This document shows positions 5,557-37,995 of a stretch of 64,000 nucleotides of DNA, piece by piece (position 1 is the stretch's first letter; each line of letters begins with the position of its first letter). A program made the translations under genes and the position numbers. Source of the DNA: an uncultured Latescibacterota bacterium (lineage in GTDB: Bacteria; Latescibacterota; UBA2968); assembly GCA_951812755.1 (NCBI GenBank), contig OX638329.1, forward strand, positions 293,339 through 357,338. The letters are read 5' to 3'. The notes under the pieces are model-generated. The model was not told where the DNA came from. It ran no database searches and saw only the letters and a program-made list of their open reading frames with translations.

Positions 5557-5904
5557 CTCTCCTCCTTATTAGCAATCAACGCGAATTAATTAAAAGCACC
5601 CTCATCCTGGACGCCTAATTAAGGCATGCAGGCGTGACGAGCACCTATCGTCATTACAAGTACTCCAGTCTTTCCAACGTCCAGAATATTCAGAATTTTA
5701 CCCACCGCGTCAAAGGGTTTTTTTAGAAAAAAAATAATACGCCAACAAATCGCAAAATTTTCTTTTTGCAAACGTTAAATCCGTTTCCTACAGCCCCCGA
5801 TTTTTGCTCTAAATCTCGCAGATACAGACAATTGAACACACCTGCACCCCAACACCAGCAATATTACAATTTGCATATATTTGGTATTGACTTTTTTTTT
5901 AGAC

Positions 5905-5918
5905 CACCATATATTGTG
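5905..5918 (+). promoter_or_regulatory. Candidate NrdR box in the long nrdA leader
   Basis: CACCATATATTGTG is a 14-bp near-palindrome resembling the NrdR operator consensus (CACwAtATaTwGTG). It lies about 350 bp upstream of the nrdA start. I did not find a convincing second box. Confidence 0.35.
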
Positions 5919-6269
5919 CTTGAAGTTGTTAATGAGAATTTGTTCGATGTCCTCGTTGAGCTATTTTGTCGCGGTCAGACCAAACATGTGCTGAACTTGA
6001 TTCAGTAATCTTTAGCAACTGCTTTTGTTTTTCAAGTTGTTATTTTTTTTCGGGAAAACAAATCCATTGTTCGCAGTCTCTCCCCGTCTCTGCGATTGGG
6101 ATTTCTCACCTAAAGTTTTCCCGATTTGTTATCTAAAAACAAAACCCCACACTCATTTTTCAACCCTCCCCGTTGTGGTTTTTATGCAGCGGTTATGGGT
6201 TTATTTTTTCTGCGAGAACACGCAGGAGCAGGCTCCTATTGGTTCTCGGCTGGTATTTGGGAGGCAGGC

Positions 6270-9161
6270 ATGGCCGAAATAGTTGACGCTTTACTGGAAG
6301 CGGTTGGTTTTGCGGTACGCAAACGCGATGGTCGAATCGTCGATTTTGACCGCGTGCGCATTGAACGCGCGATTGAGGCAGCATTTAGAGCCGAGTTGGG
6401 GTTGTCCAACGATCATTCATTGCCGCCCAAAATTGAAACCGATGTGTCGGGACTCACCGACGCTGTTATTGCTGAAATTGAAGATGAATTGCACGAGCCG
6501 GATGACAGCGTGGATGTCGAACGCATCCAGGACAAAGTCGAAATCCAGTTGATGCGTGCAGGACATTTTGCGGTCGCGCGACGCTACATCGTCTATCGAG
6601 AAGACCACAAAAAAGCCCGCGTACTCAGCGGCCAGGAAGAACCCCAGGACCCCAACGCACCCAAACTCCGCGTACAAACAGCCGATGGCAAGCGCGAACC
6701 CCTGGATGCCAACCGCATTCGCACCGAAGTATTTGCCGTCTGCGATGACGACGTAGATCCTCAAGACCTGCTCAATGAGATATATCGCTCCCTCTACGAC
6801 GACATCAAACCCGACGATATTGAACGCGCCATGATCCTGTCAGCGCGCAGCCGCGTGGAAAAAGAACCCGCCTATAGCAAAGTCGCAATGCGCTTGCTCC
6901 TCAACGTAATCTATCGCCACGCCCTGGGATTCAAACCCGCGCTTGAAGACAGGGACACAGCATGTCAGCAGGGATTTGCAAAATTTATTGAAACGGGCAT
7001 TGAAAACGACCGTTTAGATCCCAAATTGCGCACTTATGATCTGGAGCGTCTATCTGAAGCCTTAAAACCCGAGCGCGATGAAGACTTTGAGTACCTGGGC
7101 GTACAAACGATCTTTGATCGCTACTTGCTCCACGTCAACGAGCGCCGCATTGAAACCCCGCAGTTCTTCTGGATGCGCGTGGCCATGGGCCTGTCCTGGG
7201 ACGAATATGACAAAGAGGCACGCGCCATTCAATTTTACGAAGTACTCTCTTCCTTCCGATTTGTCTCTGCCACGCCCACCCTGTTCAATGCCGGCACCCT
7301 GCATCCGCAGTTGTCCTCGTGTTATCTGTCAACCGCGCAAGATGACCTGGAACACATATTCAAAATGGTATCCGACAATGCCAAATTGTCCAAATGGGCT
7401 GGCGGTCTGGGCAATGACTGGACAAATGTGCGCGCGACAAATTCCTATATCCGCGGCACAAATGGCAAAAGCCAGGGCGTCATTCCATTTTTGAAAGTCG
7501 TGAACGATACCGCAGTTGCCGTCAACCAGGGCGGAAAACGCAAAGGCGCGGTATGCTCCTATCTGGAAACCTGGCACCTGGACATCGAAGATTTTATGGA
7601 ACTGCGCAAAAACACGGGCGATGACCGCCGCCGCACGCACGACATGAACACGGCCAACTGGATCCCCGACCTGTTTATGAAGCGCGTCATGGAAAAGGGA
7701 ACCTGGACTCTGTTCAGCCCAGATGAAGTCCCCGACCTGCACGATTTGTACGGCAAAGCCTTTGAAGAAAAATACCTCGCGTATGAACAAAAAGCCGAAG
7801 CCGGTGAACTGCAACAACATCGCCAGATCGATGCCGTGCAACTGTGGCGAAAAATGTTGTCCATGCTCTTTGAAACCGGGCACCCGTGGATCACATTTAA
7901 AGACCCGTCCAATATCCGCTCTCCGCAGGATCACGCGGGCGTTGTCCACAGCTCGAATTTGTGTACTGAAATTTTGTTGAACACGAGCCGCGAAGAAACC
8001 GCAGTATGCAACCTCGGCTCTGTAAATCTCGTGGCGCATATCACACCCACGGGCCTCAACCGCGAATTGCTGGAAGATACAATATCCACAGCGCTTCGGA
8101 TGCTGGACAACGTAATAGACATCAACTTTTATCCCACAGAAGAAGCCGCCACATCCAACAAACGCCACCGTCCAGTGGGCCTGGGCATCATGGGATTTCA
8201 GGACGCGCTATATCTGTTGAATTTGCCCTACGATTCGCAAGGCGCGGTTGACTTTGCCGACGTGAGCATGGAAATGATCTCGTATTACGCGATCCTATCC
8301 TCAACGCACCTGGCCGAAGAACGCGGCACATATCACTCCTACATCGGTTCAAAATGGGACCGCGGCATATTGCCCATCGATACCTTGAAGATATTGGAAC
8401 AGGAACGGGGGTCGTACTGTGAAGTGGATATGTCCGCGCGCCTGGACTGGAATATAGTGCGCGAGGCAGTCGCCGAACACGGCATGCGAAACAGCAATGT
8501 CATGGCCATTGCCCCAACCGCCACCATATCGAATATCTCGGGCGTGACGCAGTCCATCGAGCCGATGTATCGCAACCTGTATGTAAAAGCAAATCTGTCC
8601 GGTGACTTTACAGTATTAAATCCCTACATGGTCGATGCCCTGAAAGCGCGCGACCTGTGGGACGACCAGATGGTAGATGATCTGAAGTATTTCGATGGCT
8701 CAGTCCAGGAAATTGACCGTGTGCCGCAAGACATAAAAGCACTCTACAAAACCGCATTCGAAGTGGCACCCGAGTGGCTCATCGAATGCGCCAGCCGCCG
8801 ACAAAAATGGATCGACATGGGCCAATCGCTGAATCTGTACATCGCAGCCCCCAGCGGCAAGGCACTGGACGACATGTACAAACTCGCCTGGGTGCGCGGG
8901 CTAAAGACCACGTACTACTTGCGCTCGCTGGCAGCGACCCAGATCGAGAAATCCACCATGGACATCAACAAACGCGGCGTCCAGCCCCGGTGGATGCAGT
9001 CCAAATCCGCTTCGAGCGATGTGCAAGTGCAACGCGAAGATGCACCTGTAGAAACTGACGCGTCTCTCAACGGGCAGGTACACCACGAGACCCCTGCCAC
9101 ACCAGGCCCAACGGCTGCATCCTGCGATATTACAGACGGGACATGTGAGGCGTGTCAGTAA
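6270..9161 (+). CDS. nrdA: Ribonucleoside-diphosphate reductase large (alpha) subunit, class I, with N-terminal ATP-cone
   Basis: ATP-cone ([20 protein letters not shown]). Catalytic motifs [18 protein letters not shown] and [11 protein letters not shown]-terminal redox Cys pair ([12 protein letters not shown]). I place the start at ATG 6270 with GGAGG 6 nt upstream; the track ORF from 6126 is an in-frame upstream extension. Confidence 0.9.
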
Positions 9162-9193
9162 AAAAAGAAAGGGACGTGCTATGAACACGTCCC
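9160..9193 (-). terminator. Intrinsic terminator reading on the minus strand (stem gggacgtg / cacgtccc followed by a T-run on the minus strand)
   Basis: An 8-bp perfect stem at 9171-9178 and 9186-9193 with an A-run at 9160-9170 on the plus strand. It sits between the convergent nrdA and the minus-strand small-protein operon. Confidence 0.5.
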
Positions 9194-9365
9194 GATCACA
9201 ATAAATGACCTTGGCTAAAGACATCTATAATTTGCTACATCCCAAAGGTATTTGGCAAGGCTTCATAGAGGAGATGAATATGCGCTGAAAAGGGGAGCAG
9301 TTTATCTATCTCGGACCATTTTGGAGCAGACCACAATAAATTCTGGTGATTTTGAACGACCTCAC

Positions 9366-9659
9366 CTAATTTTTCGTCTCCGAGCGACTAAAACATCTGA
9401 ATAGACCGACTATAGATACATAGATGATGGCAATACCACCTACAAGAATCGCAAATCTATGGTCACTGAATTCTCCAAACGCTATATCCTCTAAAAAAAG
9501 GACACTATATCCGAGAAATAGTCCGGTATCAATCCCAACACCGATTGCAACAACAGAAACAAGTTTTGGAAGATCAGGAACTTCTTTACGCAAGCCACAG
9601 ACTACACAGTAAATCAAAAGAAACACTATACCGAGAATCAGCCCTCTATTTATTGTCAT
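9366..9659 (-). CDS. Small membrane protein of about 97 aa with 3 predicted TM helices. Last gene of the Panacea-associated operon.
   Basis: Hydrophobic segments LILGIVFLLIYCVVCGL, LVSVVAIGVGIDTGLFLGYSVLFL and FAILVGGIAIIYVSIVGLF. The start overlaps the upstream stop by 4 nt. AT-rich (about 42% GC). Confidence 0.5.
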   Translation of the reverse strand: MTINRGLILGIVFLLIYCVVCGLRKEVPDLPKLVSVVAIGVGIDTGLFLGYSVLFLEDIAFGEFSDHRFAILVGGIAIIYVSIVGLFRCFSRSETKN

Positions 9660-9997
9660 TGCTCTCTACTTTCCACCCAGTATCCGCACGAACCCCCGAT
9701 AATACTTCCAATGACAATCCCTAACATTCCAAAAGAGCTACCAGCCATCAATCCGCCTATAAGTCCGGCGACCGCGAGTGCATGCGAAGCCATAGAAGAG
9801 GTCTTGGATTGTTGAATCTGGTTATCACGGTTGACAGATGCACTTTCTTGATTGAGCTCTTGGGATTCTTTCGGTAATTCCTTAATAGTGGCAAAGACCG
9901 CATCTTCAATAGTGGCAAAGACCGCATCTTCAGTACGAGTTTGAATTGTCTCTCTTGATTGTTCTGGTCGAATATCTAATTTTGAGAGTTCTCCCAT
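9656..9997 (-). CDS. Small protein with a C-terminal glycine-zipper transmembrane domain. Candidate membrane-targeting toxin (PanT-like).
   Basis: The C-terminus reads ALAVAGLIGGLMAGSSFGMLGIVIGSIIGGSCGY, i.e. repeated GxxxG. The N-terminus is polar and carries a duplicated EDAVFATI. The ATG sits directly after the upstream stop (TGATG junction). Confidence 0.5.
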   Translation of the reverse strand: MGELSKLDIRPEQSRETIQTRTEDAVFATIEDAVFATIKELPKESQELNQESASVNRDNQIQQSKTSSMASHALAVAGLIGGLMAGSSFGMLGIVIGSIIGGSCGYWVESREQ

Positions 9998-10543
9998 TTA
10001 TTGACCTCCTATTCTATTCAGGTAGTACTCTCTTATGACCTTATTCGGTATGTGTGCATTTCTAAATCCATTCCTTCTTTTCCATGTTTTATCCCAGGGT
10101 GTGTCTTCTCTATGTGTTATATCAGAAAGCTGTAACCCTGTATATTCTCCGTAAACTTCCCAAATCTTATTTAATAAAGCACTGGGGAATTCATCGTTTG
10201 GATCTATCTTCGGAGTTATAGATTTTGTGTCGAGTTTTCCCCTATCATCATCGTATGAAAACTCAATATCTTTTGCAAACTCTGTTATTGGATCCCCACC
10301 AAAGCGTTTGAAATGATGGTAAAGTGATGGAAATACCGGACCATATTGCCAAGCCTCGGCGAACTCGTCGTCAACTAACGGAAGACCGTCAGACGAGTTA
10401 TCTCTTGCGGTGAAAGCGAGATGATACCCGTGAGCGATATACACAAGTTTTTGTATCATCAATGGTGTTATTTCAACACCATCCTTCTTACCAAGGTCTA
10501 AAAAGTAATTTGCCACAGCAAATGCAGAGTAACCCATATACAT
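9998..10543 (-). CDS. Panacea domain (DUF4065, SocA/PanA-like) protein. Putative antitoxin.
   Basis: N-terminal motif AVANYFLDLGKKDGVEITPLMIQKLVYIAHGYHLA...PLVDDEFAEAWQYGPVFPSLYHHFKRFG matches the DUF4065 signature (VANYFL... KLQKLLYYAqGwhLa .. F.AW.yGPV.p.lY). The likely start is the third codon, ATG at 10537, with AAGGAG 6 nt upstream. Confidence 0.6.
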   Translation of the reverse strand: MYMGYSAFAVANYFLDLGKKDGVEITPLMIQKLVYIAHGYHLAFTARDNSSDGLPLVDDEFAEAWQYGPVFPSLYHHFKRFGGDPITEFAKDIEFSYDDDRGKLDTKSITPKIDPNDEFPSALLNKIWEVYGEYTGLQLSDITHREDTPWDKTWKRRNGFRNAHIPNKVIREYYLNRIGGQ

Positions 10544-10675
10544 CTCCTTGATTACTCTCTCATCAGAACGGGAGAGGGGGATTATTAGATTATATTATTT
10601 ATGTTATTATAGGGAATTGCGATATAATAACATAGAAAGGAAGTGGGATCATGTCAAGGAGTTTAACCAACGTTT

Positions 10676-10725
10676 CTAACGCTTCTAACGCGCCCAGATA
10701 TGCTAACGCTACGAACATACTAACC
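10676..10725. promoter_or_regulatory. Iteron-like direct repeats: CTAACGC repeated 3 times plus one CTAACC. Candidate operator upstream of the Panacea operon.
   Basis: ...ttctaacgcttctaacgcgcccagatatgctaacgctacgaacatactaacc... at 130-190 bp upstream of the minus-strand panA-like start. Confidence 0.35.
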
Positions 10726-10837
10726 TACAAATCTACCGACGCCGTAACACCGGCATCATTGGCTATAGCCTTCTGATTTTTATTCAAAATTAAGTAATGA
10801 AACCACACTATTATGGAATAATTATTCGATTTATTAT

Positions 10838-10871
10838 TCTGCTACTTTAAGATATAACTTAAAGTAGCAGA
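10838..10871 (+). terminator. Perfect 14-bp stem hairpin (tctgctactttaag-atataa-cttaaagtagcaga) in an AT-rich block (about 25% GC), followed by a T-rich tract
   Basis: Read directly from the sequence. There is no plus-strand gene immediately upstream, so the hairpin could instead be a recombination or att-like site at the junction of horizontally acquired segments. Confidence 0.35.
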
Positions 10872-10958
10872 GACAAATTTGGAATTTTTATTTTGCGTAT
10901 GTAGATGGCGGCTTTAAGCAAAGAGGCCGGATGGCTCACAAGGGTAGTCCGGCTTTTC

Positions 10959-11209
10959 CTATGAATCTAACAGGCGCTCAAATTCATCGAGACTGGACAC
11001 CTGAACCGCCGCGCGGAGCAACTGCTTGAGGCGTTGCAAATCTTCGATAGTCGCAATGCGAGTAGATAGGGGGTCTGCTTCGTGCAGATCAAATCTCCAA
11101 CACTTCGAGGATATCTTCAATGGCGCATTGTCTGCCCCTGCTCAATACCTTCTTCAATGCCTTCTCGCTTAAATTGCTGAATAAGGGATGATTCGCGGAT
11201 GATATCCAT
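10959..11209 (-). pseudogene. Frameshifted remnant of a DUF4351 / Rpn-family (PD-(D/E)XK transposase-like) protein C-terminal region
   Basis: Minus-strand reading from ATG (complement 11207-11209, AAGGAGGG SD): MDIIRESSLIQQFKREGIEEGIEQGQTMRH* then, after a frameshift, ..IEDILEVLEI* then, after another frameshift, ..DPLSTRIATIEDLQRLKQLLRAAVQVSSLDEFERLLDS*. The EEGxEQG repeat and the C-terminal tail are typical of DUF4351 proteins. Confidence 0.5.
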
Positions 11210-11257
11210 GATGCCCTCCTTCAAAATAATATCAGAAATAGTTTCGGATATGTCCTC

Positions 11258-11372
11258 AATATGCTGTATTGCACCCTTTTTTTTAACTTGAATTTGTGGA
11301 TCGTCTGTTTGGCGTAAAACAATCTCTGTATATTTTGAACGATAAATGGGCGGTCATGTGAAAGATATGTAC
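11258..11372 (+). repeat. Dispersed intergenic element of about 115-135 bp, copy 1 (CAATATGCTGTATTGC ... TTGTGGATCGTCTGTT ... GTATATTTTGA.CGAT.AAT ... GTGAAAGATATGTAC)
   Basis: Collinear blocks of 16, 16, 11 and 15 bp are shared with 35815-35944, in the same order and orientation. Confidence 0.6.
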
Positions 11373-11467
11373 CACTTGTCCATTTGTCCGCCGCGGTGGT
11401 TCTTGCGTAACATCAGTTATATTCAGGGTAGGTCAGAGTATTTTTTTGATTATAAGTCCTTTTTAGG

Positions 11468-11497
11468 GTTGACAGTACGCGAGTACTTTTACTATAA
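11468..11497 (+). promoter_or_regulatory. Near-consensus sigma70 promoter: TTGACA, an 18-bp spacer, then TATAAT. The spacer contains the perfect 12-bp palindrome GTACGCGAGTAC.
   Basis: ttgacaGTACGCGAGTACttttacTATAAT lies about 240 bp upstream of the ATPase gene at 11735. It faces the plus-strand gene string 11735 to 16249 (ATPase, peptide ORF, ATPase, DUF4276, nrdB). Confidence 0.55.
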
Positions 11498-11646
11498 TAA
11501 GCACGTCTTTACCACAACATTTTGTGCTCTTTTTTCGTTAATTACAAAATATTGTGGCGTAAATAAAAGCACAGCAATAATTTAAAGCGATTCTCCAATC
11601 GCTTTAAGACCTCCCCTCGTCTTCCCCTGACGGCTCCTTACGGTCC

Positions 11647-11724
11647 ATCGCACTGGCGACCTTATTTTTTTTAGCTATATTCGACACAGTCATCTTTTCG
11701 GCAAAATGACCAGATTGCTCATCC
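11647..11724 (+). repeat. Decayed remnant of the 3-prime end of a second ATPase cassette copy, ending in the 27-bp direct repeat (DR1 at 11698-11724)
   Basis: 11647-11667 equals 12428-12448 (inside the gene). 11681-11697 equals 12588-12604 (inside the gene). 11698-11724 equals 12772-12798 (just past the stop). The order and orientation match the intact gene, with about 330 bp of intervening sequence deleted. Confidence 0.6.
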
Positions 11725-11734
11725 GAATTTCACA

Positions 11735-12763
11735 ATGCCTGCTCTTGACAACATTACCATCAAGGGCTTCAAGAGCATCGGTTCTATTGAGAACTTGAAG
11801 CTCGGCCCAATTAACGTCTTGATCGGGCCGAATGGATCGGGCAAATCAAACTTCATTGAGGTCTTCTCCTTCCTGCGCGAAATCACCTCGGATAGGCTGA
11901 AGGATTATGTGAACCGCGCTGGTGGGGCCGACAAAATTCTGCATTTCGGTTCCAGAACAACTGAAGAACTGATCATTGACATCTCATTTGACGACATAGC
12001 AAATCGGTACACGATCAGGTTGCACGCAACGGATACCGACATGCTATATCTGTCTTCAGAGTCTGACCGCTTCTGGAACGCCCACTCGGATTCCGATATC
12101 CGCAACCATCCCGATAGGTGGCGCGTTTATCACTTCCATGACACAAGTTCCACATCGCCAATGCGGAAAACCGCCGATGTAAACGACAACCGTTATTTGC
12201 GATCCGATGCTTCCAACCTATCGGCGTTTCTGTACTACTTGCATGAGACGCATGAAGCGTCATACAACCTGATTCGCCGCACAGTGCAGCAGGTCGCGCC
12301 ATTTTTTGATGATTTTCTCCTCCAGCCGCTGGCACTAAACAACGACAAAATCCACCTCGAATGGCGTCACAAGAAATCCGAAGCGTACTTTGATGCTTCT
12401 TCGCTCTCTGACGGCTCCCTGCGATTTATCGCACTGGCGACCTTATTTCTTCAGCCAGAGCCGCTTCGTCCATCCATTATTCTATTGGACGAGCCAGAAC
12501 TTGGACTACACCCCTATGCGACCGCCATGTTGGCTTCGCTTGTAAAACAGGCATCCGTCAAGACTCAGGTCATTCTTTCGACACAGTCATCTTTGCTAAT
12601 CGATCACTTCCAACCAGAAGATGTGCTCGTGGCTGAACGGGTAGATGGACAAACGCAATTCACAAGGCTCAACGCAATTCGCCTGAAAACATGGTTAGAG
12701 GACTACAGCCTCGGCCAACTCTGGGAAAAAAATGAGATAGGTGGGCGTCCCGTAGTGGAGTAG
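11735..12763 (+). CDS. AAA family ATPase (AAA_21/ABC-type, OLD/AbiL-ATPase-like). Orphan, with no nuclease partner.
   Basis: Walker [17 protein letters not shown]-loop and signature region. Walker B IILLDEPELGLHP. D-loop and H-loop TQVILSTQS. 342 aa. Confidence 0.8.
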   Translation: MPALDNITIKGFKSIGSIENLKLGPINVLIGPNGSGKSNFIEVFSFLREITSDRLKDYVNRAGGADKILHFGSRTTEELIIDISFDDIANRYTIRLHATDTDMLYLSSESDRFWNAHSDSDIRNHPDRWRVYHFHDTSSTSPMRKTADVNDNRYLRSDASNLSAFLYYLHETHEASYNLIRRTVQQVAPFFDDFLLQPLALNNDKIHLEWRHKKSEAYFDASSLSDGSLRFIALATLFLQPEPLRPSIILLDEPELGLHPYATAMLASLVKQASVKTQVILSTQSSLLIDHFQPEDVLVAERVDGQTQFTRLNAIRLKTWLEDYSLGQLWEKNEIGGRPVVE

Positions 12764-12771
12764 ATAGAGAA

Positions 12772-12798
12772 TCGGCAAAATGACCAGATTGCTCATCC
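12772..12798 (+). repeat. 27-bp exact direct repeat (DR2) TCGGCAAAATGACCAGATTGCTCATCC, 9 bp past the ATPase stop. Identical to DR1 at 11698-11724.
   Basis: Exact 27/27 match read from the sequence. The two copies bracket the gene with 10-bp and 9-bp margins. Confidence 0.85.
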
Positions 12799-12972
12799 TT
12801 GCGCTCGCTAAACTGATTAACTGACATTACACACAGTAGTTAAAAAACGAAAAACCAAACTATTACAGGGGATTGAGGTTCGACTCTCCTTGTTTTCTCC
12901 GTTCTTAGTTCCGTTGCTATCTCCTTAAAATGGATCAGTATTAAATCTACGAGTTTCATTAGGGAGGTTAAT

Positions 12973-13074
12973 ATGAAAAATTTGGCTGTTTTTATTAGTG
13001 CGATTTCTGAAATAGCATGTACTATAATATGTACTATCGGAGTTAACATCCTGGGGAGTCCCCTGTCTCAATAA
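12973..13074 (+). CDS. Putative 33-aa hydrophobic Cys-containing peptide (MKNLAVFISAISEIACTIICTIGVNILGSPLSQ)
   Basis: Strong SD AGGGAGG 5 nt upstream of the ATG. The hydrophobic core is long enough for a single TM helix. It lies between the two ATPase genes. The ORF track lists no plus-strand ORF here because it is under 60 aa. Confidence 0.35.
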   Translation: MKNLAVFISAISEIACTIICTIGVNILGSPLSQ

Positions 13075-13134
13075 GCTATTTAACAGGCAATGCCATTCTG
13101 CTTAAAGATGCGTAATGTCAGTGACTAAAAAGAG

Positions 13135-14406
13135 ATGAACCTAACAACTTCACAATACACAGCACCGGCGCGGATCGAGTATTTGAAGGTGCAGAACTTT
13201 CGTGCGTTGCGGGAAGTTGAGTTCAAGGAATTGACACCGCTGACTGTGTTGCTCGGTCCCAATGGCAGCGGGAAATCAACAGTATTTGACGTATTTGCGT
13301 TTCTATCGGAATGCTTTGAGTCGGGTTTGCGTCGCGCCTGGGATCAACGTGGCCGTGCCAAAGAACTGCGGACGCGCGGCAACATCGATCCCGTTGTCAT
13401 CGAACTCAAGTACCGCGAACAGCCGGGCACGCGTCTGATCACTTATCACCTGGCTATTGACGAAGACCGCAACCGCCCCGTTGTCAAGGAGGAATGGTTA
13501 CAATGGCGGCGCGGCCAACACGGCAGACCATTCCGATTTCTCGATTATCGCGAGGGACAGGGCAGAGCGGTCAGCGGTGAGCAACCCGACGAATTGGACA
13601 CGCTTTACTCGGGACCGATCCAATTAGACCCGCGCAACGAGGTACCGCTCCAATCGCCCGACCTGCTGGCAGTCAATGCCCTGGGGCAATTTGCCGATCA
13701 CCCGCGCGTAGCAGCACTGCGCGACTTCATCACCGGATGGCATGTGTCATACCTCTCGGCAGACAGCGCACGAGGCCAGCCCGAAGCAGGACCTCAAGAG
13801 CGACTGTCTAAGAGCGGCGACAACCTTGCCAATGTCATACAGCACCTTGCAGAACAATACCCCGAGCGACTTAACCAGATCTTTGAGGTGCTACGCCAGC
13901 GGGTGCCGCGCATTGAGCGCGTGCTATCAGAAGTCATGCCCGATGGTCGCTTGTTGTTGCAAATTAAGGACGCACCGTTCAGCAACCCGGTGCTGGCGCG
14001 ATTCGCTTCTGATGGCACATTGAAAATACTGGCTTACCTGGTGCTATTATACGACCCCGAACCGCCGCCCTTCATCGGCATCGAAGAGCCGGAAAACTTC
14101 TTGCACCCTCGATTGCTTCCGGAACTTGCCGAAGAATGCCGTGCGGCCTGCGAGCGCACGCAGTTATTGGCGACCACGCATTCGCCATTTTTCCTGAACG
14201 CACTGCGTCCCAAAGAGGTCCGCGTCCTCTGGCGCGACGCGGAGGGGTACACACAAACACGCCGAGTCGCAGATATACCCGGCATACCGGAATTTGTCGA
14301 AGAGGGTGCATATCTTGGCCATCTATGGATGGAAGGATATTTCAATCTGGGAGACCCGCTGGACAGACATGGTGAACCGACTCCTCCTCTGGAGGGACGC
14401 GGGTGA
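13135..14406 (+). CDS. AAA family ATPase (AAA_21 / OLD-family ABC-like ATPase). ATPase component of a two-gene split-OLD / AbiL / PARIS-like module.
   Basis: Walker [17 protein letters not shown] and Walker [14 protein letters not shown]. 423 aa with a long inserted region between the motifs, as in OLD/AriA/GajA-type ATPases. A 4-bp ATGA overlap joins it to the next gene. Confidence 0.8.
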
Positions 14407-15023
14407 TGACGGCACAACATCTGGAATTACTCGTTGAAGAACCCTCAATGGAGGCCTTCTTGCGAGAGCTATTGCCGCGTATGCTGCCTGCGGAATGCAC
14501 ATTCAAAATTCATCCGTTTCAGGGGAAGCCAGACCTGTTGGACAAGTTGCAAAATCGTCTGCGAGCCTATGCAAAATGGTTACCCGACAACTATCGCATC
14601 TTCGTAATCGTTGACCGCGATAACGACAACTGCGAACAATTAAAACAAAAACTTGAAAACATTGCTTCTCGGACTCAACTGCTCACCCGCTCACAGGCCC
14701 GTAGTCGTCTCTGGCAACTGGTCAACCGTATCGCCATTGAAGAACTGGAGGCATGGTACTTTGGTGACTGGCAGGCGGTGTGTAATGCCTATCCGAGGGT
14801 TTCAAAAAAAATTCCAAATCAGGCACGCTATCGCCACCCCGATGCAATCCGCGGAGGCACATGGGAAGCTTTCGAACGCATCCTGAAGCGACATGGCTAC
14901 TTTAAAACTGGACTACGCAAAGTGGAGGCTGCCAGAGACGTTGGCATTCATATTGATTCTAATCGTAGCCGTTCGCACAGTTTTGTGAAATTCCGCGAAG
15001 CCATCATTGAGGCAACTGCTTGA
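14403..15023 (+). CDS. DUF4276 family protein (Toprim-like predicted nuclease partner of the ATPase)
   Basis: 206 aa. The N-terminal [19 protein letters not shown] (acidic EE after a beta-strand) and the later [11 protein letters not shown] (DxD) fit a Toprim-like E...DxD arrangement. The size and the ATPase-then-DUF4276 gene order are typical of this family. The assignment is from memory. Confidence 0.55.
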
Positions 15024-15061
15024 ACCATTATTGTATCTCATTTTTTTAAAGGAGTTGTAAT

Positions 15062-16249
15062 ATGTCTAAGCTCATATTTGAAGACGAAGACGTTGAAAGT
15101 CAAGCAAATATGGACTACAAGGATGGTGGTCACGCGGAGCAAAACGGCATTCATGCGTCCGTTGAAGCGGATAATACTGACGTACCCTCCGCGCTGTGTT
15201 GTGGTGCCACTGGCGAGGCGTATGACCTGACCAGGCGCATCAACCCGGAAGACAAGCGATTGCTCAACTGCCGGCAGGTGGATGTAAACCAGTTGATGCC
15301 CCTCAAATACGAATGGGCATGGGAACACTATCTCAACGGATGTGCCAATCACTGGATGCCGACAGAAGTACCGATGCAGCGCGACATAGAACTCTGGCGT
15401 TCAAATGCCCTGAACGACGCCGAGCGAAAAGTCATCTTGAGAAACCTCGGATTCTTCAGCACGGGCGAAAGCCTCGTCGGTAACAACATCGTACTCGCCA
15501 TCTTCAAACACATCACAAACTCCGAAGCGCGACAATACCTCTTGCGCCAGGCATTTGAAGAAGCCATACACACCCACACATTCCACTACATCGTCGAATC
15601 CCTGGGCCTGAACGCACGCGAAGTATTCAACATGTATCACGAAGTCTCGTCCATCGAAGGCAAAGACAAATTCGTGATGGAACTAACCGAAGACGTGTTA
15701 GATCCCAACTTCTCAACACAAAGCATTGAAGGCATGCAGAAATTCGTGAAAAATCTCGTCGGATTTTACGTCATCATGGAAGGCATATTCTTTTACAGCG
15801 GCTTTGTCATGATCCTCTCCTTCCATCGGCAAAACCGCATGACCGGCATTGGCGAACAATTCCAGTACATCTTGCGCGACGAGACCATTCATCTGAATTT
15901 TGGCATTGACTTAATCAACACCATCAAATCGGAAAACCCAGAAATCTGGACAACGGAACTGCAACGCGACATCTACGACCTCATCCACGAAGCCGTGGAA
16001 TACGAAGTAATCTATGCACGGGATTGTGTGCCCGACGGCGTACTGGGCCTCAATGAAGACTTATTCCGCGAATACGTGCAATTCATCGCCGACCGTCGGT
16101 TGGAACGAATCGGCCTGCAAAGCGTATATGGATCAAAGAATCCTTTCCCGTGGATGGGAGAAACCATTGACATCGCAAAAGAAAAGAACTTCTTTGAAAC
16201 GCGCGTAACAGATTATCAAAGCGCGGGATCCTTACAGTGGGATGATTAA
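15062..16249 (+). CDS. nrdB: Ribonucleoside-diphosphate reductase small (beta) subunit, class I
   Basis: [16 protein letters not shown] and the di-iron ligand helices ([30 protein letters not shown]). AAAGGAG SD. Only 38 bp separate it from the DUF4276 stop. Confidence 0.9.
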
Positions 16250-16310
16250 CCCTAAAACTTTGACAGGAATTTATTCAGGCTGACGGGGGAAGGGAAATCA
16301 GAGCCTGGTA

Positions 16311-16348
16311 CAGGGTGGGAGACAAACGTCTTCCACCCTGTTTTTTTT
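16311..16348 (+). terminator. Strong rho-independent terminator for nrdB (long GC hairpin cagggtgggagac-aaac-gtcttccaccctg followed by T8)
   Basis: Read from the sequence. The T-run abuts the stop of the convergent minus-strand gene. Confidence 0.7.
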
Positions 16349-17633
16349 ACTGATCAGACATGGGAAAAGCCATAACCTCGCCTATAGAAGATGCCCCTGT
16401 AAGAAGCATAACCAGACGATCCACCCCAAGCGCAATACCGCCAGAAGGCGGCATCCCGTATTCGAGAGCCGAAAGAAAACGCTCGTCAATTGGATAAGCC
16501 GCATTCCCCTCCCTCACGCGCTGGGTGGCCTCCTCTTCCAAACGCTGGCGTTGCTCATCCGGATCGTTCAACTCTGTAAACGCATTGCACAACTCCATCC
16601 CCGCAATATAAACCTCAAACCGCTCTGCCAGATCTGGCGCGCTGGACTTGCGTTTGGCAAGCGCTGCCATCGGCGCGGGATAATCGTACAAAATCGCTGG
16701 CTTTTGCACACCCAGATGTGGCTCAACCCGATCGAGAAACACCTTGAAAAACGCGACGTCCGGCGGATCATCCTCATCAACTGTCACATGCCCCGCCTGC
16801 CTGATAAACGCGGCAGTATCCGAATACGGATCAGCGCGAATACCCGCATAGCGCAACATCGCCTCCCGCACAGAAATACGCTCCCACGGCGGCGTCAGAT
16901 CAACCGCGTACTGACCCGTCCGCACAACAGGCTCTCCATATAAATCTGTTGCAAGTCCGGCAATCAAATACTCAGTATCCACCATAATATCAGTATAATC
17001 CGCGTACGCCCGATACCACTCCAGCATCGTAAACTCAGGCGTATGCATCCTGCCAACAGGCTCGTGCCGAAACACCTTGCAAATCTGGTATATCCGTTCA
17101 AAACCAGCCGCGAGCAGGCGCTTCATCGCATACTCAGGCGAAGTATGCAGATAAAACTGCCGCATCTCATACGCCGTCTGAAACGCCTCGAGATGCGGCT
17201 CCATACCCGGTTGCGACACCATCAGAGGCGTCTCAACCTCCACAAAACCCTTCTCATCAAAAAATCGACGAATCCCCGCAATAATTTTGGCGCGCTTGCG
17301 CAAATTCGTCTGCACGACCTGGGATAAAGACACATCCGCACCACGGGACGGCACCAGCACCCGCAGCCCTGTAGCAGAAAAAACATCGCCTTCAAGACAA
17401 CCCTCAACCTCCACAATATCTCCAGTCTTTGCCTCGGTAGCAGTATTAAAACACAGGCACACCCTTCCCGTCTCATCGGAAAGCGCATCTCGCTCCACAA
17501 GACGCCCGGCCACAACCGCAAACTCACCCGCCTGCAGATCACAGACCCGATGCGTACGCTTACATCGTGCGGGATATTGGGGAGATGGATAATCGCGCAT
17601 GAATATTGTCCTTAGAAGTCGATTGACGACCAA
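16347..17633 (-). CDS. epmA: EF-P lysine aminoacylase EpmA/GenX-like class II LysRS paralog with an N-terminal OB-fold-like extension
   Basis: TSPEYAMKRLL, TPEFTMLEWY, ERFEVYIAGMELCNAFTELNDPDEQRQR and GIALGVDRLVMLL align with EpmA/PoxA. An extra N-terminal segment of about 100 aa (..FAVVAGRLVERD...IVEVEGCL) is not present in E. coli EpmA. Confidence 0.65.
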   Translation of the reverse strand: MVVNRLLRTIFMRDYPSPQYPARCKRTHRVCDLQAGEFAVVAGRLVERDALSDETGRVCLCFNTATEAKTGDIVEVEGCLEGDVFSATGLRVLVPSRGADVSLSQVVQTNLRKRAKIIAGIRRFFDEKGFVEVETPLMVSQPGMEPHLEAFQTAYEMRQFYLHTSPEYAMKRLLAAGFERIYQICKVFRHEPVGRMHTPEFTMLEWYRAYADYTDIMVDTEYLIAGLATDLYGEPVVRTGQYAVDLTPPWERISVREAMLRYAGIRADPYSDTAAFIRQAGHVTVDEDDPPDVAFFKVFLDRVEPHLGVQKPAILYDYPAPMAALAKRKSSAPDLAERFEVYIAGMELCNAFTELNDPDEQRQRLEEEATQRVREGNAAYPIDERFLSALEYGMPPSGGIALGVDRLVMLLTGASSIGEVMAFPMSDQ

Positions 17634-19945: not shown

Positions 19946-20087
19946 GTGATATCACAGATATAAACCTGAAATCGGTACAAATCTCAAGTTTAACTTGAAA
20001 TATGTACCGATTTGCTTATTTTACCCCGCCTTTACAACGAAAAAGTCAATCCGACTCGCCTGTACCGAATAAAAGGAACATTGGCCT

Positions 20088-32993: not shown

Positions 32994-34940
32994 ATGGCTG
33001 AAGTCGCTCAAGAACACGAACAAAAAGACCCTACCGCACGCGCATTGACCTACAAGTCGATCATCCTGGGGCTAATACTTGTACTCGTAGCAGCACTCGG
33101 TGGATTTTATGCACGGCACATCTTGCACACAACGCGGCTGGCGCAAAATCACCTATCCCTCGCCGTGGTTTTTCCCTTTGCAATAACAGTTGTATTCTTG
33201 CGGCATTATCTCAAGCTCAATCGGGGCGAACTCCTGGTCATCTTTTCAATGGGCCTGATCGCCTCAACCCTGCCAACGTATTTCTTGAGCCGATTAATTG
33301 CCAGTTTTTGCGTACCGTATTATCTCGCCGACCCGACAAATCGATGGGGTGAGTTTACACACGATTACCTGCCATCCTGGGCCGTGATTGAACCAGGCCC
33401 GGCATTGACGTGGTTTTTTGAGGGCTTGCCGCGTGGCACACCTGTTCCGTGGGAAGTGTGGATCGGACCTCTGTTCTGGTGGTTGAGCCTGCTCGCGGCA
33501 CTCTGTGCGGTCTTGTTGTGTACAGCGGTAATCTTGCGCAAGCAATGGATCGAATACGAGCGATTGGACTACGCTCTCATGGAATTGCCCCTCGCAATGG
33601 TCGAAGGAGGCGATACACCCTCCCGCTTGCCACCATTTATGCGCTCGCCGCTCTTCTGGCTGGGCTTTTCATTTTCGATCTTCGGCATCTTGTGGAATAT
33701 CGTCTCCTATTTTAATCCCACGTTTCCCGTATTTCCATGGCGATTTGAATCCATTTCATTTGGACGAGATTTTCAGGCAATTCGCATGAACCTCTACTGG
33801 CCCATTGTGGGATTTGCTTACTTTATCAACTTAGACGTCTCGTTTAGCATCTGCTTCTTTTATATCCTCGCGGTCATCGAAGAGGGATTATTCAACCGAT
33901 TCGGCGTCATAATTTCAGAAGCAAATTTTGCTGGCACCTCCTTTGTGCCCGTGGGCTGGCAAATGATCGGCGTGTGGTTTACCGTAGTCGGCTGGGGGCT
34001 CTGGATTGCGCGGTCGCACCTGCGCGATGTATTTCGCAAAGCATTCAAAGGCGATGCAAAAATCGATGACTCAGACGAGTTGCTATCCTATCGAGGTGCA
34101 GTCTTCGGCTTGTTGGGCGGGCTGCTTTACATGGCCTGCTGGTTTTACGCTTCGGGCATGGCCTTGTGGGTCATCGCGGTATTTCTCGTCGTCATGATGG
34201 TCGTCTATATCGGTATTTCGCGCATCATCGCCGAAACCGGCGTCATCACCATCCGCGCCGTCATGGTACCGCAAACATTTATCATGTTCACATTTGGCAC
34301 CACGCGACTATCAGCACAAACCATGGTCGCACTCGGCATGTCTTATGGCTGGTGCGGCGACATGAAAACAACGCTCATGCCAGCATTGACCCACTCCGTC
34401 CGTCTATTTGACACCATTCAGCATCACAAACGGCAACTCGCGTGGGCCCTGTGTCTGGCAATGGGCGTGGGCATTGTCGCATCCTGTTTGTATATCATAT
34501 CCATGGGATACGAAGGCGGCGCGGGCAATTACGGATCGCAAATCTCCGGAGGCTTAGCGCGCGGACCCTGGGACTTTGTGGTAAAATACGCAAGAGACCC
34601 CGTCAATCCCGACTGGCGCAAAATGGCCTTCTTCACCAGCGGCATCGCCTTCGCTGCCCTCCTGTACTTCTTGCGCTACCGCTACACCTGGTGGCCCCTG
34701 CACCCACTGGGTCTGGCAACCGGGCCTGCGTATCCCGTAACCCATGTAATCTTCCCAATCTTTCTCGGCTGGTTGAGCAAACTCGCAATCTTGCGTTTTG
34801 GTGGCAGCAGAACCTATCGCAGTGCCCGCCCCTTCTTCCTCGGATTGATAATGGGATACTACGTGGGTGCGGGCATCTCGTTCTTTGTCGATATGATCTG
34901 GTTTTACGGGCAAGGTCACGGCGTCCCGTTTTCCGATTGA
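32994..34940 (+). CDS. Large polytopic membrane protein (about 14 TM) of an uncharacterised family. Paralog of 37996-39948.
   Basis: About 45-50% identical to the second copy across the full length (shared ELLVIFSMGL.AS.LP.YF, FEGLP, PWE.WI.P and RKQW.E.ERL blocks). Confidence 0.6.
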   Translation: MAEVAQEHEQKDPTARALTYKSIILGLILVLVAALGGFYARHILHTTRLAQNHLSLAVVFPFAITVVFLRHYLKLNRGELLVIFSMGLIASTLPTYFLSRLIASFCVPYYLADPTNRWGEFTHDYLPSWAVIEPGPALTWFFEGLPRGTPVPWEVWIGPLFWWLSLLAALCAVLLCTAVILRKQWIEYERLDYALMELPLAMVEGGDTPSRLPPFMRSPLFWLGFSFSIFGILWNIVSYFNPTFPVFPWRFESISFGRDFQAIRMNLYWPIVGFAYFINLDVSFSICFFYILAVIEEGLFNRFGVIISEANFAGTSFVPVGWQMIGVWFTVVGWGLWIARSHLRDVFRKAFKGDAKIDDSDELLSYRGAVFGLLGGLLYMACWFYASGMALWVIAVFLVVMMVVYIGISRIIAETGVITIRAVMVPQTFIMFTFGTTRLSAQTMVALGMSYGWCGDMKTTLMPALTHSVRLFDTIQHHKRQLAWALCLAMGVGIVASCLYIISMGYEGGAGNYGSQISGGLARGPWDFVVKYARDPVNPDWRKMAFFTSGIAFAALLYFLRYRYTWWPLHPLGLATGPAYPVTHVIFPIFLGWLSKLAILRFGGSRTYRSARPFFLGLIMGYYVGAGISFFVDMIWFYGQGHGVPFSD

Positions 34941-37923: not shown

Positions 37924-37995
37924 TTGAATAGACACCAGATATTTCCATCCTTATATTGCCCCTCCACCCGCATCATCCGCGATCCGGAGCCCTCA

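Follow-up and report, generated by a model that had tools for sequence, protein, structure and literature searches.

A stand-alone HEC-01-type gene pair, an ABC ATPase plus a predicted Toprim-fold DUF4276 protein, between nrdA and nrdB of an uncultured Latescibacterota bacterium

Based on the profile searches, structure predictions and locus comparisons reported here, two adjacent genes of an uncultured Latescibacterota bacterium almost certainly constitute a stand-alone copy of HEC-01, that is, an ABC ATPase plus a Toprim fold. They encode a HEC-01A-type ABC ATPase (AAA_21/AAA_15, OLD-like; 13135-14406, 423 aa in the ORF list) and a HEC-01B-type DUF4276 protein, a predicted Toprim-fold nuclease (14406-15023, 205 aa). 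Positions are those of the window, the whole 64-kb stretch of DNA that was analysed, and the genes and motifs located below lie on its forward strand. The explanation that we favour overall, with a probability of roughly 0.6, is a stand-alone HEC-01 module in which an OLD-like ATPase and a DUF4276 Toprim nuclease would act together in aborting infection. The first-pass annotation had proposed an OLD-family nuclease split into two genes, and the reading of a split OLD-like ATPase plus Toprim is supported; the architecture and likely fold of the pair are already published, and the locus is an ordinary new copy.

The gene pair seen in the first pass was recovered in place with both of its ORFs, and two details of the junction are corrected. 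The sequence at the junction is GGGTGATGACG, with GTGATG at 14403-14408, and not the ATGA overlap first described. The ATPase stop TGA occupies 14404-14406; a GTG at 14403 opens the second ORF as listed (14403-15023, forward strand, 206 aa) with a 4-nt overlap, and an ATG at 14406 overlaps the stop by a single nucleotide. Because the DUF4276 homologues are 205 aa long and the junction of the closest relatives reads TAATG, without GTG, we place the start at the ATG at 14406, which gives a protein of 205 aa instead of the 206 aa first reported. Across 82 orthologous loci the distance between the two genes is -4 nt in 33 (ATGA or GTGA overlaps), -1 nt in 12 and 0 to +8 nt in 30; an overlap or a gap of at most 8 nt is thus found in 75 of them. 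As in HEC-01, the genes are adjacent on one strand, here with the 1-nt overlap at 14406, and the DUF4276 gene is translationally coupled to the ATPase gene.

The first protein is an ABC ATPase of the AAA_21 type, as first annotated (Pfam AAA_21, 1.8e-30), and the HEC-01A model PDLC04182 of PADLOC-DB v2.0.0 matches it at 1.1e-163 and 543 bits (residues 12-407, model positions 2-404 of 406). Its N-terminus is kept from M1 in distant orthologues. The Walker A motif GPNGSGKS, already noticed in the first pass, lies at aa 41-48 (13255-13278; K47 at 13273-13275), with G41-G44, G46 and K47 invariant in 40 homologues; the Walker B plus D-loop motif, noticed as well, lies at aa 313-325 (14071-14109), with E317, E318, P319, E320, N321, H324 and P325 invariant in 40 homologues. 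The same invariance holds for the ABC signature-like motif SDGT (aa 292-295, 14008-14019) and the H-loop TTHSP (aa 347-351, 14173-14187; H349). The predicted structure is of moderate confidence (pLDDT 68), and Foldseek ranks Thermus scotoductus OLD, a full-length nuclease (6p74, E 5.5e-13), first, ahead of PtuA and GajA. Together with the hhalign alignment to residues 4-355 of P2 Old, the ATPase half of that protein (E 1.7e-5), this match identifies an OLD-type ABC ATPase domain.

The second protein matches Pfam DUF4276 (PF14103) at 109.3 bits (gathering cut-off 30.2; 3.8e-31) over profile positions 1-190 of 192, and the HEC-01B model PDLC04202 at 4.4e-87 and 289 bits (residues 6-204, model positions 2-200 of 204). 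The HMM searches proposed in the first pass therefore recovered AAA_21 and DUF4276, and no Pfam family of the Toprim clan matched the DUF4276 protein at E values up to 10. Its assignment to the Toprim fold is a prediction that combines one Foldseek match at TM 0.5 with the positions of conserved motifs. The AlphaFold2 model (pLDDT 87.7, pTM 0.85) has a beta-alpha-beta-alpha-beta-alpha-beta core with strands at residues 5-10, 32-37, 63-70 and 105-110, each then leading into a helix. The sole significant PDB match of this model is 6nk8_A, the part of B. pseudomallei OLD that includes its C-terminal Toprim region (E 3.9e-4, probability 1.00, TM 0.50/0.52), so the comparison with OLD and Toprim structures suggested in the first pass did lead to an OLD Toprim region. 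The nearest solved folds of the ATPase and Toprim halves are thus both OLD nucleases, 6p74 and 6nk8, in line with the split OLD architecture.

The conserved acidic residues of the DUF4276 protein also fit the Toprim-like E...DxD arrangement that the first reading had put forward from an N-terminal acidic motif and a later DRDND, which are found at aa 8-18 and aa 70-74. E11, E12 and E16 follow strand 1 (residues 5-10, then EE; 14436-14453) and would supply the candidate Toprim glutamate. DRDND follows strand 3 (63-70) at 14613-14627 and contains the candidate DxD, D70xD72, as well as D74. A second conserved acidic pair, E113 and E115, lies after strand 4 in IEELEAW (14736-14756). Conservation was read from alignments of 45 close homologues, of 62 diverse representatives (32-63% identity) and of a broad set reaching down to 18% identity. 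Among the 62 representatives E11, D70, D72 and E113 are at least 90% conserved and E115 is invariant; among the 45 close homologues D70, D72, E113 and E115 are invariant and E11 is at least 90% conserved. The broad set, with relatives of 18-37% identity, shows no change at E11, E113 or E115; in it, D70xD72 is retained in plasmid relatives of about 30% identity and is not aligned in a subfamily of 231-234 aa. E16 is invariant within the close clade only. Profiles built from 45 and 62 DUF4276 members found nothing below E 0.1 among all PDB sequences, and hhalign gave no significant alignment with the Toprim half of P2 Old (probability 0.2% for the close and 2% for the diverse set); the weak alignment of the diverse set places LLVEE opposite LLVEG at 395-399 of P2 Old, which we take as a lead only. 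Among the viral structures of BFVD the model has no significant neighbour.

HEC-01, the Hma-embedded candidate 01, was described by Payne et al. as an ABC ATPase plus a TOPRIM protein with an OLD-like metal site (10.1101/2024.01.29.577857); it has the same two proteins in the same order as here, and both of its HMMs match nearly end to end. Whereas the published HEC-01 is embedded in Hma, the present copy lies between nrdA and nrdB, outside any Hma, BREX-like or R-M system. The split OLD-like ATPase plus Toprim is not new, since Payne et al. defined HEC-01, since Mad3/Mad4 are related to it and since two papers call DUF4276 a Toprim: DUF4276 is described as such in PMC12065111, and Mad4 of MADS is named as DUF4276/Toprim in PMC12065111 and PMC11464382. 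Mad3/Mad4 likewise consist of an AAA_15/21 ABC ATPase adjoining a DUF4276 protein (Maestri et al., 10.1101/2023.03.30.534895). However, the NCBIfam model MAD3 scores only 118.6 bits on the ATPase, below its equivalog cut-off of 420, and no MADS core genes (mad6-8, methyltransferase) turned up in the neighbouring genes or in ten large ORFs that were scanned in the window.

The analogy with AbiL and PARIS drawn in the first pass agrees with published groupings (PMC11464382) as far as architecture is concerned, but does not extend to membership. PARIS (AriA/AriB, OLD class 4) likely follows a common logic, with a sensor-scaffold ATPase and a released nuclease, but its effector is a DUF4435 protein and that of the present pair a DUF4276 protein of 205 aa, for which neither PADLOC nor Pfam gave an AriB or DUF4435 match. 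The AriA model PDLC02980 does match the ATPase (1.2e-30), but this model equals Pfam AAA_21 in length and match coordinates, and its match is therefore not specific; the HEC-01A models score far higher; the AriA model PDLC02979 matches in short stretches only, and AriA structures are absent from the 50 best fold matches of the ATPase. [quoted passage not shown] In OLD classes 1-3 the two domains are fused (P2 Old and Thermus OLD were compared here for class 1, Gabija GajA and Burkholderia OLD for class 2), whereas they are encoded by separate ORFs here and in all 82 loci. Gabija needs an adjoining UvrD/PcrA-like helicase, GajB, while the present pair has nrdB downstream and an ATPase remnant upstream, and neither a UvrD-like helicase nor a retron next to it. 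Menshen is close in another respect: NsnC variants with a C-terminal DUF4276 domain share the effector domain family and are paired with the ABC ATPase NsnB, and their DUF4276 domain, in which a Glu and a DxD are conserved, has been put in the Toprim superfamily (PMC12065111). In the present locus, by contrast, DUF4276 is free-standing, the NsnB model matches the ATPase weakly (4.3e-17), and the NsnA and NsnC architectures are absent. PARIS, AbiL, Gabija and MADS were thus each rejected as the home of the pair by their own markers.

Linkage of the two genes is far beyond chance. The DUF4276 protein was used to retrieve 82 loci, drawn from many bacterial phyla and from a Methanosarcina, and every one of them carries an ATPase orthologue (58-97% identity) directly upstream. 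Plasmid-borne and prophage relatives of about 30% identity show this arrangement too. The two proteins diverge together, their identities being correlated at r = 0.61-0.91, and both genes are under purifying selection, with dN/dS of 0.06-0.34 against close relatives and 0.06-0.10 in most comparisons. The DUF4276 family comprises more than 6000 clusters at 90% identity and 1415 at 50%, and nearly all of the 150 best representatives are about 200 aa long. Phage or plasmid cargo was considered as the main habitat and rejected, a pattern scan of 2.9 million viral contigs having given 2 matches, with 10 plasmid records. A general link between HEC-01 and RNR genes was rejected as well: nrd neighbours occur only in close Latescibacterota relatives, in 5 of 87 loci.

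The pair quite probably protects against phages or other mobile DNA. On the model of P2 Old, PARIS AriA/AriB and Gabija, its ATPase would oligomerise and serve as infection sensor and scaffold, the Toprim subunit being held inactive in complex with it until a phage cue alters the ATPase assembly, so that the active site of the Toprim subunit is freed or opened. This site would be formed by E11, D70xD72 and E113xE115, probably with two metal ions. The DUF4276 nuclease would then cut nucleic acid, and the infection would be aborted; tRNA, the target of AriB and P2 Old, and DNA, which GajA and other OLD nucleases cut, are both possible substrates. AriB and P2 Old are tRNases that are released or opened by changes in ATPase assembly (PMC11464382; 10.64898/2026.07.10.737580). 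Such a release of a Toprim nuclease by a sensor-scaffold ATPase is a plausible scheme, which we hold at slightly under even odds. The first-pass remark that the ATPase-DUF4276 pairing is experimentally poorly characterised is borne out, and the published phage tests of HEC-01 are mixed. One representative, of a subtype that may differ from the present one, gave E. coli protection from one or more of T4, T5 and T7 in a report that gives no mutants or mechanism (10.1101/2024.09.26.614923). HEC-01 alone, again of a subtype that may differ, gave no protection against a broad phage panel in the only such published test (10.1101/2024.01.29.577857).

This latter result, obtained with a module that was discovered inside Hma systems, suggests that the pair might be an accessory to systems that rely on methylation (Type I R-M, Hma, MADS), where it could, for instance, guard or modulate restriction, and that it is stranded here with little or no function. 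Deletion of mad3 or mad4 weakens MADS, these relatives being needed for its full activity (10.1101/2023.03.30.534895), and 17 of 79 loci have the pair between hsdS and hsdR (HsdS upstream in 17, HsdR downstream in 11, HsdM in 8); a related HEC-01 subtype adjoins N6_N4_Mtase (methylase) and ResIII genes. A stranded copy would also agree with the lack of R-M genes near the pair and in ten large ORFs elsewhere in the window. However, only about one fifth of the loci lie inside Type I restriction-modification operons and about four fifths have no R-M neighbour, both genes of the stand-alone copy are intact and under the purifying selection described above, the copy has stayed at this position since the OY282377 lineage diverged (nrdB dS about 1.2), and a stand-alone HEC-01 has been reported to be protective. 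We therefore consider an accessory role improbable, and retain the stand-alone defence module as the better account.

The gap between nrdA and nrdB in which this module resides is a variable defence hotspot. Its left border is nrdA (class I RNR large subunit with ATP-cone, Pfam; 6270-9161): homology to the related locus L001 stops at 9160, and a palindromic terminator-like hairpin follows at 9171-9193. On the other side, nrdB (ribonucleotide reductase small subunit, Pfam Ribonuc_red_sm 5.9e-91; 15062-16249) starts 38 nt past the DUF4276 stop. The site varies between near relatives, one of which (L085) lacks the pair altogether, and the island also contains a SocA/Panacea TA-type module. Neither tRNA genes nor Rfam families were found in the 64-kb window, nor any integrase or attachment-site signature next to the island.

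The island also holds a decayed second pair, in which the ATPase is intact and the DUF4276 partner has been lost. This partner-less ABC ATPase belongs to another HEC-01A subtype (342 aa, 11735-12763; PADLOC PDLC04175, 4.4e-134) and has a dN/dS of 0.11 against L085; in its relatives a DUF4276 protein of 231-234 aa comes next. In the present locus it is followed at 12772-12798 by a stub of the lost partner, with ATG ACC AGA TTG CTC ATC (MTRLLI), which matches the start of the 231-aa DUF4276 gene in a related locus (6032-6058 of L083). The stub forms the downstream copy of an exact 27-nt direct repeat; the upstream copy, at 11698-11724, is preceded by fragments of an ATPase 3' end at 11627-11670 and 11680-11697. 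Two other features of the 342-aa ATPase were rejected as signs of decay: the Q that replaces H in its H-loop is invariant in that subfamily, and its short form also occurs in a relative that still has the DUF4276 partner.

Such a remnant bears on the possibility that the pair is a selfish, TA-like addiction module, with a Toprim toxin and an ATPase antidote and no real protection against phages, which persists since its loss is harmful and since it sits within a unit expressing the essential nrdB. PARIS has been described as type II TA-like, with a toxic AriB and AriA as antitoxin (PMC13064643). Tight coupling and a fixed gene order would be expected of an addiction module, as would the presence of another TA-type module in the island, SocA/Panacea, and a location downstream of a promoter/operator and ahead of nrdB, the stretch from 11735 to 16310 having no strong terminator. 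Against this, the decayed pair has lost the putative toxin and kept the ATPase, the order expected in TA decay, which indicates that the module can be broken, and the very wide horizontal spread at 60-80% identity with frequent R-M embedding is more typical of defence cargo. This explanation, which is in any case compatible with an abortive-infection function, appears still less probable than an accessory role.

A housekeeping role in DNA metabolism, as a RecF/RecR-like or SbcCD-like ATPase-nuclease tied to the neighbouring RNR genes, would account for the position between nrdA and nrdB under a possibly shared NrdR-type operator and for weak matches of RecF, SMC and Rad50 models to the ATPase N-terminus, and RecR also has a Toprim domain. 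OLD-family ATPases may indeed serve non-defence roles, as does archaeal Cran1 in the cell cycle (PMC12796447), but this explanation is very unlikely here, as the RecF match reaches 28.6 bits against a cut-off of 172, the nrd link is confined to the 5 of 87 loci from close Latescibacterota relatives, the distribution across phyla, plasmids and a prophage is patchy and horizontal, and L085 lacks the pair at a site that varies between near relatives.

Returning to the stand-alone defence module, its transcription may be tied to that of nrdB. A site at 11469-11498 matches the sigma-70 promoter consensus at 12 of 12 positions (TTGACA-18-TATAAT) and is also conserved in L001 and L085. It is followed by two NrdR-box-like 16-mers (11512-11527 and 11542-11557, 14-bp linker), both of which carry all six key positions of the NrdR box, C4, A6, A8, T9, T11 and G13 (PMC13584703). 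This tandem is the only one in 64 kb, while shuffled sequences average 0.01 and only 3 of 300 have any; it is conserved in L001/L003 (15-bp linker) and in L085. Single boxes of this kind number 19 in the window, where 17.5 are expected, and are thus not enriched; a similar box lies at 5904-5919, upstream of nrdA. From the promoter onwards the order is tandem NrdR-like boxes, ATPase, ATPase, DUF4276, nrdB and a strong intrinsic terminator-like hairpin past nrdB (16310-16341; 14 pairs plus a T-run). Given this arrangement, the ATPase genes and nrdB may be expressed together from the consensus promoter with its tandem boxes. We tentatively suggest, as a possibility that is rather unlikely at present, that in this Latescibacterota lineage the nrdB transcription unit has captured both the HEC-01 pair and the remnant ATPase, under an NrdR-type operator.

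HEC-01 is among the most abundant ATPase-Toprim modules, and the present locus adds one copy to a very large family. The locus raises two side questions: whether a defence module can ride on an NrdR-controlled RNR transcript, and how cargo is exchanged at a hotspot between two essential genes. If the capture did occur, NrdR, the dATP/ATP sensor, would set the expression of an OLD-like defence module, which would rise as dNTP pools fall, for instance during phage DNA replication. The essential nrdB would then rely on read-through from the defence genes, and the island would therefore be locked in place.

Profile searches place the ATPase-DUF4276 pair in HEC-01, a candidate defence system catalogued in PADLOC, and in the Pfam family DUF4276; it is an already known candidate system and not a new type. 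The ATPase matches AAA_21 (1.8e-30) and also AAA_15, and the second protein scores 109 bits against DUF4276 (cut-off 30.2), as the first-pass annotation had anticipated, while the PADLOC profiles HEC-01A (PDLC04182, 1.1e-163) and HEC-01B (PDLC04202, 4.4e-87) each cover nearly the full length of their protein. HEC-01 was defined by Payne et al. as an ABC ATPase plus a TOPRIM protein; these authors came across it inside Hma systems and pointed to a metal site of OLD type (bioRxiv 10.1101/2024.01.29.577857). DUF4276 has also been named a Toprim member (PMC12065111). Both families are large: the DUF4276 protein falls in a family of more than 6000 clusters at 90% identity (1415 at 50%, nearly all of about 200 aa) and the ATPase in one of at least 8000 clusters at 90% identity.

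Both genes lie on the forward strand where they were initially reported, the ATPase at 13135-14406 (423 aa) and the DUF4276 gene, when counted from a GTG, at 14403-15023. Every motif quoted for the two proteins was recovered: Walker A GPNGSGKS (aa 41-48) and the Walker B/D-loop motif (aa 313-325) in the ATPase, the N-terminal acidic motif (aa 8-18) and DRDND (aa 70-74) in the DUF4276 protein. To these can be added an ABC signature-like SDGT (aa 292-295) and an H-loop TTHSP (aa 347-351) in the ATPase, neither of which had been listed. The junction, however, is not the ATGA overlap that had been claimed, but GGGTGATGACG. Since the DUF4276 homologues are 205 aa long and the nearest relatives have TAATG without the GTG, the predicted start of the DUF4276 gene is the ATG at 14406, overlapping the ATPase stop codon by one base.

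The two genes are tightly linked. In all 82 loci retrieved via the DUF4276 protein, an ATPase orthologue lies immediately upstream of the DUF4276 gene. These loci span numerous bacterial phyla and include one from a Methanosarcina. The genes overlap by 4 nt in 33 of them and by 1 nt in 12, and are 0-8 nt apart in another 30; the sequence identity of one protein also correlates with that of the other (r = 0.61-0.91). The DUF4276 protein is encoded at 99% identity in two MAGs, and the ATPase partner is retained in relatives at about 30% identity, found on pSYSM of Synechocystis, a conjugative plasmid of Pseudomonas and a Rahnella prophage. The last of these, on Rahnella aquatilis HX2 plasmid PRA1 (L090, 2709-4651; about 40% and 30% identity for the two proteins), occupies the late region of the prophage, flanked by an antitermination gene and lysis genes, a classic spot for prophage-borne defence cargo. 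Among 79 clustered loci, HsdS is found upstream in 17, HsdR downstream in 11 and HsdM in 8, so that roughly one fifth of the loci lie inside Type I restriction-modification operons; in the window, no restriction-modification gene was found close to the pair or among the ten large ORFs tested.

The first-pass annotation had read the pair as an OLD nuclease split into two genes, and this is essentially right as a structural description, because both proteins match OLD enzymes at the level of predicted fold. The AlphaFold2 model of the DUF4276 protein, built on a 45-sequence alignment (pLDDT 87.7, pTM 0.85), alternates four strands with four helices and ends in a helical C-terminal part. Its one significant Foldseek match in the PDB is the C-terminal Toprim region of the Burkholderia pseudomallei OLD protein (6nk8_A; E 3.9e-4, probability 1.00, TM 0.50/0.52). 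In this model E11, directly after strand 1, and D70xD72, which ends strand 3, occupy the canonical Toprim positions and agree with the proposed acidic arrangement; E113xE115 follows strand 4. Conservation of all five residues reaches at least 90% among 62 representatives (32-63% identity), and E11, E113 and E115 are invariant even among relatives at 18-37% identity. No sequence-level Toprim match for DUF4276 came out of profile searches of PDB sequences, hhalign comparison with P2 Old or permissive Pfam searches, and the predicted link to Toprim is therefore one of fold only. The ATPase model is less confident (pLDDT 68, pTM 0.74); its best PDB neighbour is the Thermus scotoductus OLD 6p74 (E 5.5e-13), followed by PtuA and GajA, and its alignment matches P2 Old over residues 4-355 of the latter (E 1.7e-5).

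The pair resembles PARIS, AbiL, Gabija, OLD classes 1-3 and MADS in architecture, but belongs to none of them. It has no helicase neighbour as in Gabija, and its ATPase and DUF4276 domains are unfused, unlike OLD classes 1-3. The ATPase reaches 118.6 bits against MAD3, far from the cut-off of 420, and no MADS core gene was found among the neighbours or the ten large ORFs tested. The suggested likeness to AbiL and PARIS holds for the architecture, AbiL and MADS3-4 having already been grouped with ABC ATPase plus TOPRIM systems (PMC11464382), but does not extend to membership, as there is no match to AbiLii/RloB or to AriB/DUF4435.

In PARIS, the Toprim protein AriB is held in check on a scaffold formed by the ABC ATPase AriA, until a phage protein frees it to cleave tRNA (PMC11464382). 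P2 Old is reportedly a tRNase whose Toprim site opens on tetramer destabilisation (10.64898/2026.07.10.737580), and DNA is the substrate of GajA and other OLD enzymes (PMC10568477). By analogy with these systems, the best-supported model would be one in which a sensor-scaffold ATPase keeps a metal-dependent DUF4276 nuclease in check until the cell is infected; translational coupling would set the ratio of the two proteins, and either tRNA or DNA would be the putative substrate. Given the frequent embedding in restriction-modification operons, some HEC-01 triggers may be anti-restriction factors. The first-pass annotation called such pairs poorly characterised, and the experimental record is indeed thin and mixed: HEC-01 failed to protect E. 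coli K-12 from BASEL and classic phages (10.1101/2024.01.29.577857), one cold-seep representative conferred resistance to one or more of T4, T5 and T7 (10.1101/2024.09.26.614923), and deletion of mad3 or mad4 weakened MADS defence (10.1101/2023.03.30.534895).

The pair lies within a 5.9-kb island between the class I ribonucleotide reductase genes nrdA (6270-9161) and nrdB (15062-16249). When the window is aligned with a relative of about 92% identity, homology ends at 9160 and restarts at 13131, four bases 5' of the ATPase start; the island thus varies on its left side, whereas the pair and nrdB are shared. Judging from the related loci, the nrdA-nrdB gap is a variable cargo hotspot in Latescibacterota, whose content is different in each relative and is drawn from TA modules, unknown ORFs, a KAP NTPase, and one or two ATPase-DUF4276 pairs. 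It spans 9162-15061 in the window, 6703-10656 in L001 (with a 181-aa unknown ORF and ATPase fragments), 4074-6704 in L085 (only the second ATPase, the pair being absent), 8192-8726 in L004 (a short remnant) and 1-9514 in L083, a more distant Latescibacteria chromosome with two complete tandem pairs. Between the latter, a duplicated 5' piece of nrdB is fused to a Polbeta nucleotidyltransferase, which suggests that cargo is swapped by recombination in the nrd flanks. Against the genomes of about 92% identity, the pair has dN/dS values of 0.06-0.34, like the flanking housekeeping genes. In comparison with L001, its dS values (0.045 and 0.13) are two to eight times below those of nrdA, nrdB, the amidohydrolase and the sulfatase (0.27-0.37), suggesting that the pair was exchanged with that lineage more recently than its flanks.

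Upstream of the pair, a second ATPase (11735-12763, forward strand) belongs to another HEC-01A subtype (PADLOC 4.4e-134). This gene remains intact, with a dN/dS of 0.11 that indicates purifying selection, but its DUF4276 partner has been lost except for the first six codons (MTRLLI). These lie in one copy (12772-12798) of a 27-nt direct repeat, whose exact second copy (11698-11724) directly follows fragments of an ATPase 3' end (11627-11697). On the minus strand, three head-to-tail genes (9366-10543) look like a Panacea antitoxin with one or more small membrane toxins. The first (9998-10543) encodes a SocA/Panacea-domain protein whose NCBIfam SocA score of 101.7 falls short of the 190 cut-off; the next two encode a 113-aa protein whose hydrophobic C-terminus resembles a glycine zipper (9656-9997) and a hydrophobic protein of 97 aa (9366-9659). 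An AT-rich stretch of about 320 bp (12809-13130), missing from L001, directly precedes the pair's ATPase; the 69-aa hydrophobic ORF on its minus strand (12840-13049) has no Pfam match.

A perfect sigma-70 consensus, TTGACA-18-TATAAT (11469-11498), conserved in L001 and L085, is followed by two NrdR-box-like 16-mers (11512-11527 and 11542-11557), both matching all six key positions C4, A6, A8, T9, T11 and G13 (PMC13584703). This tandem is unique within the 64 kb (shuffle mean 0.01; present in 3 of 300 shuffles), and the boxes are conserved in L001/L003 and L085. Upstream of nrdA (region 5872-5919) there is a similar box, paired with one that matches 5 of the 6 positions. Strong terminator-like hairpins occur only after nrdA (9171-9193) and after nrdB (16310-16341), and nrdB starts 38 nt past the DUF4276 stop. 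Taken together, these consensus scans predict that the ATPase genes, the DUF4276 gene and nrdB may share a single NrdR-controlled transcript. Against this stand the unusual 14-bp linker between the boxes (15 bp in L001) and the absence of such boxes from L004.

Elsewhere, a second small variable spot is marked by an AAA_14/DUF4143 ATPase gene that L001 carries (15618-16889), with the sulfatase gene on one side and a 646-aa ORF on the other, and that the window lacks (at 20027-20072). A TPR/PMT_2-like glycosyltransferase gene (36094-37923) is flanked by the genes of two large paralogous proteins with DUF6785 and DUF6784 domains (32994-34940 and 37924-39948), which are unrelated to the pair.

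The interest of the pair lies mainly in the great abundance of its family, and in the nrd hotspot with its possible NrdR control.
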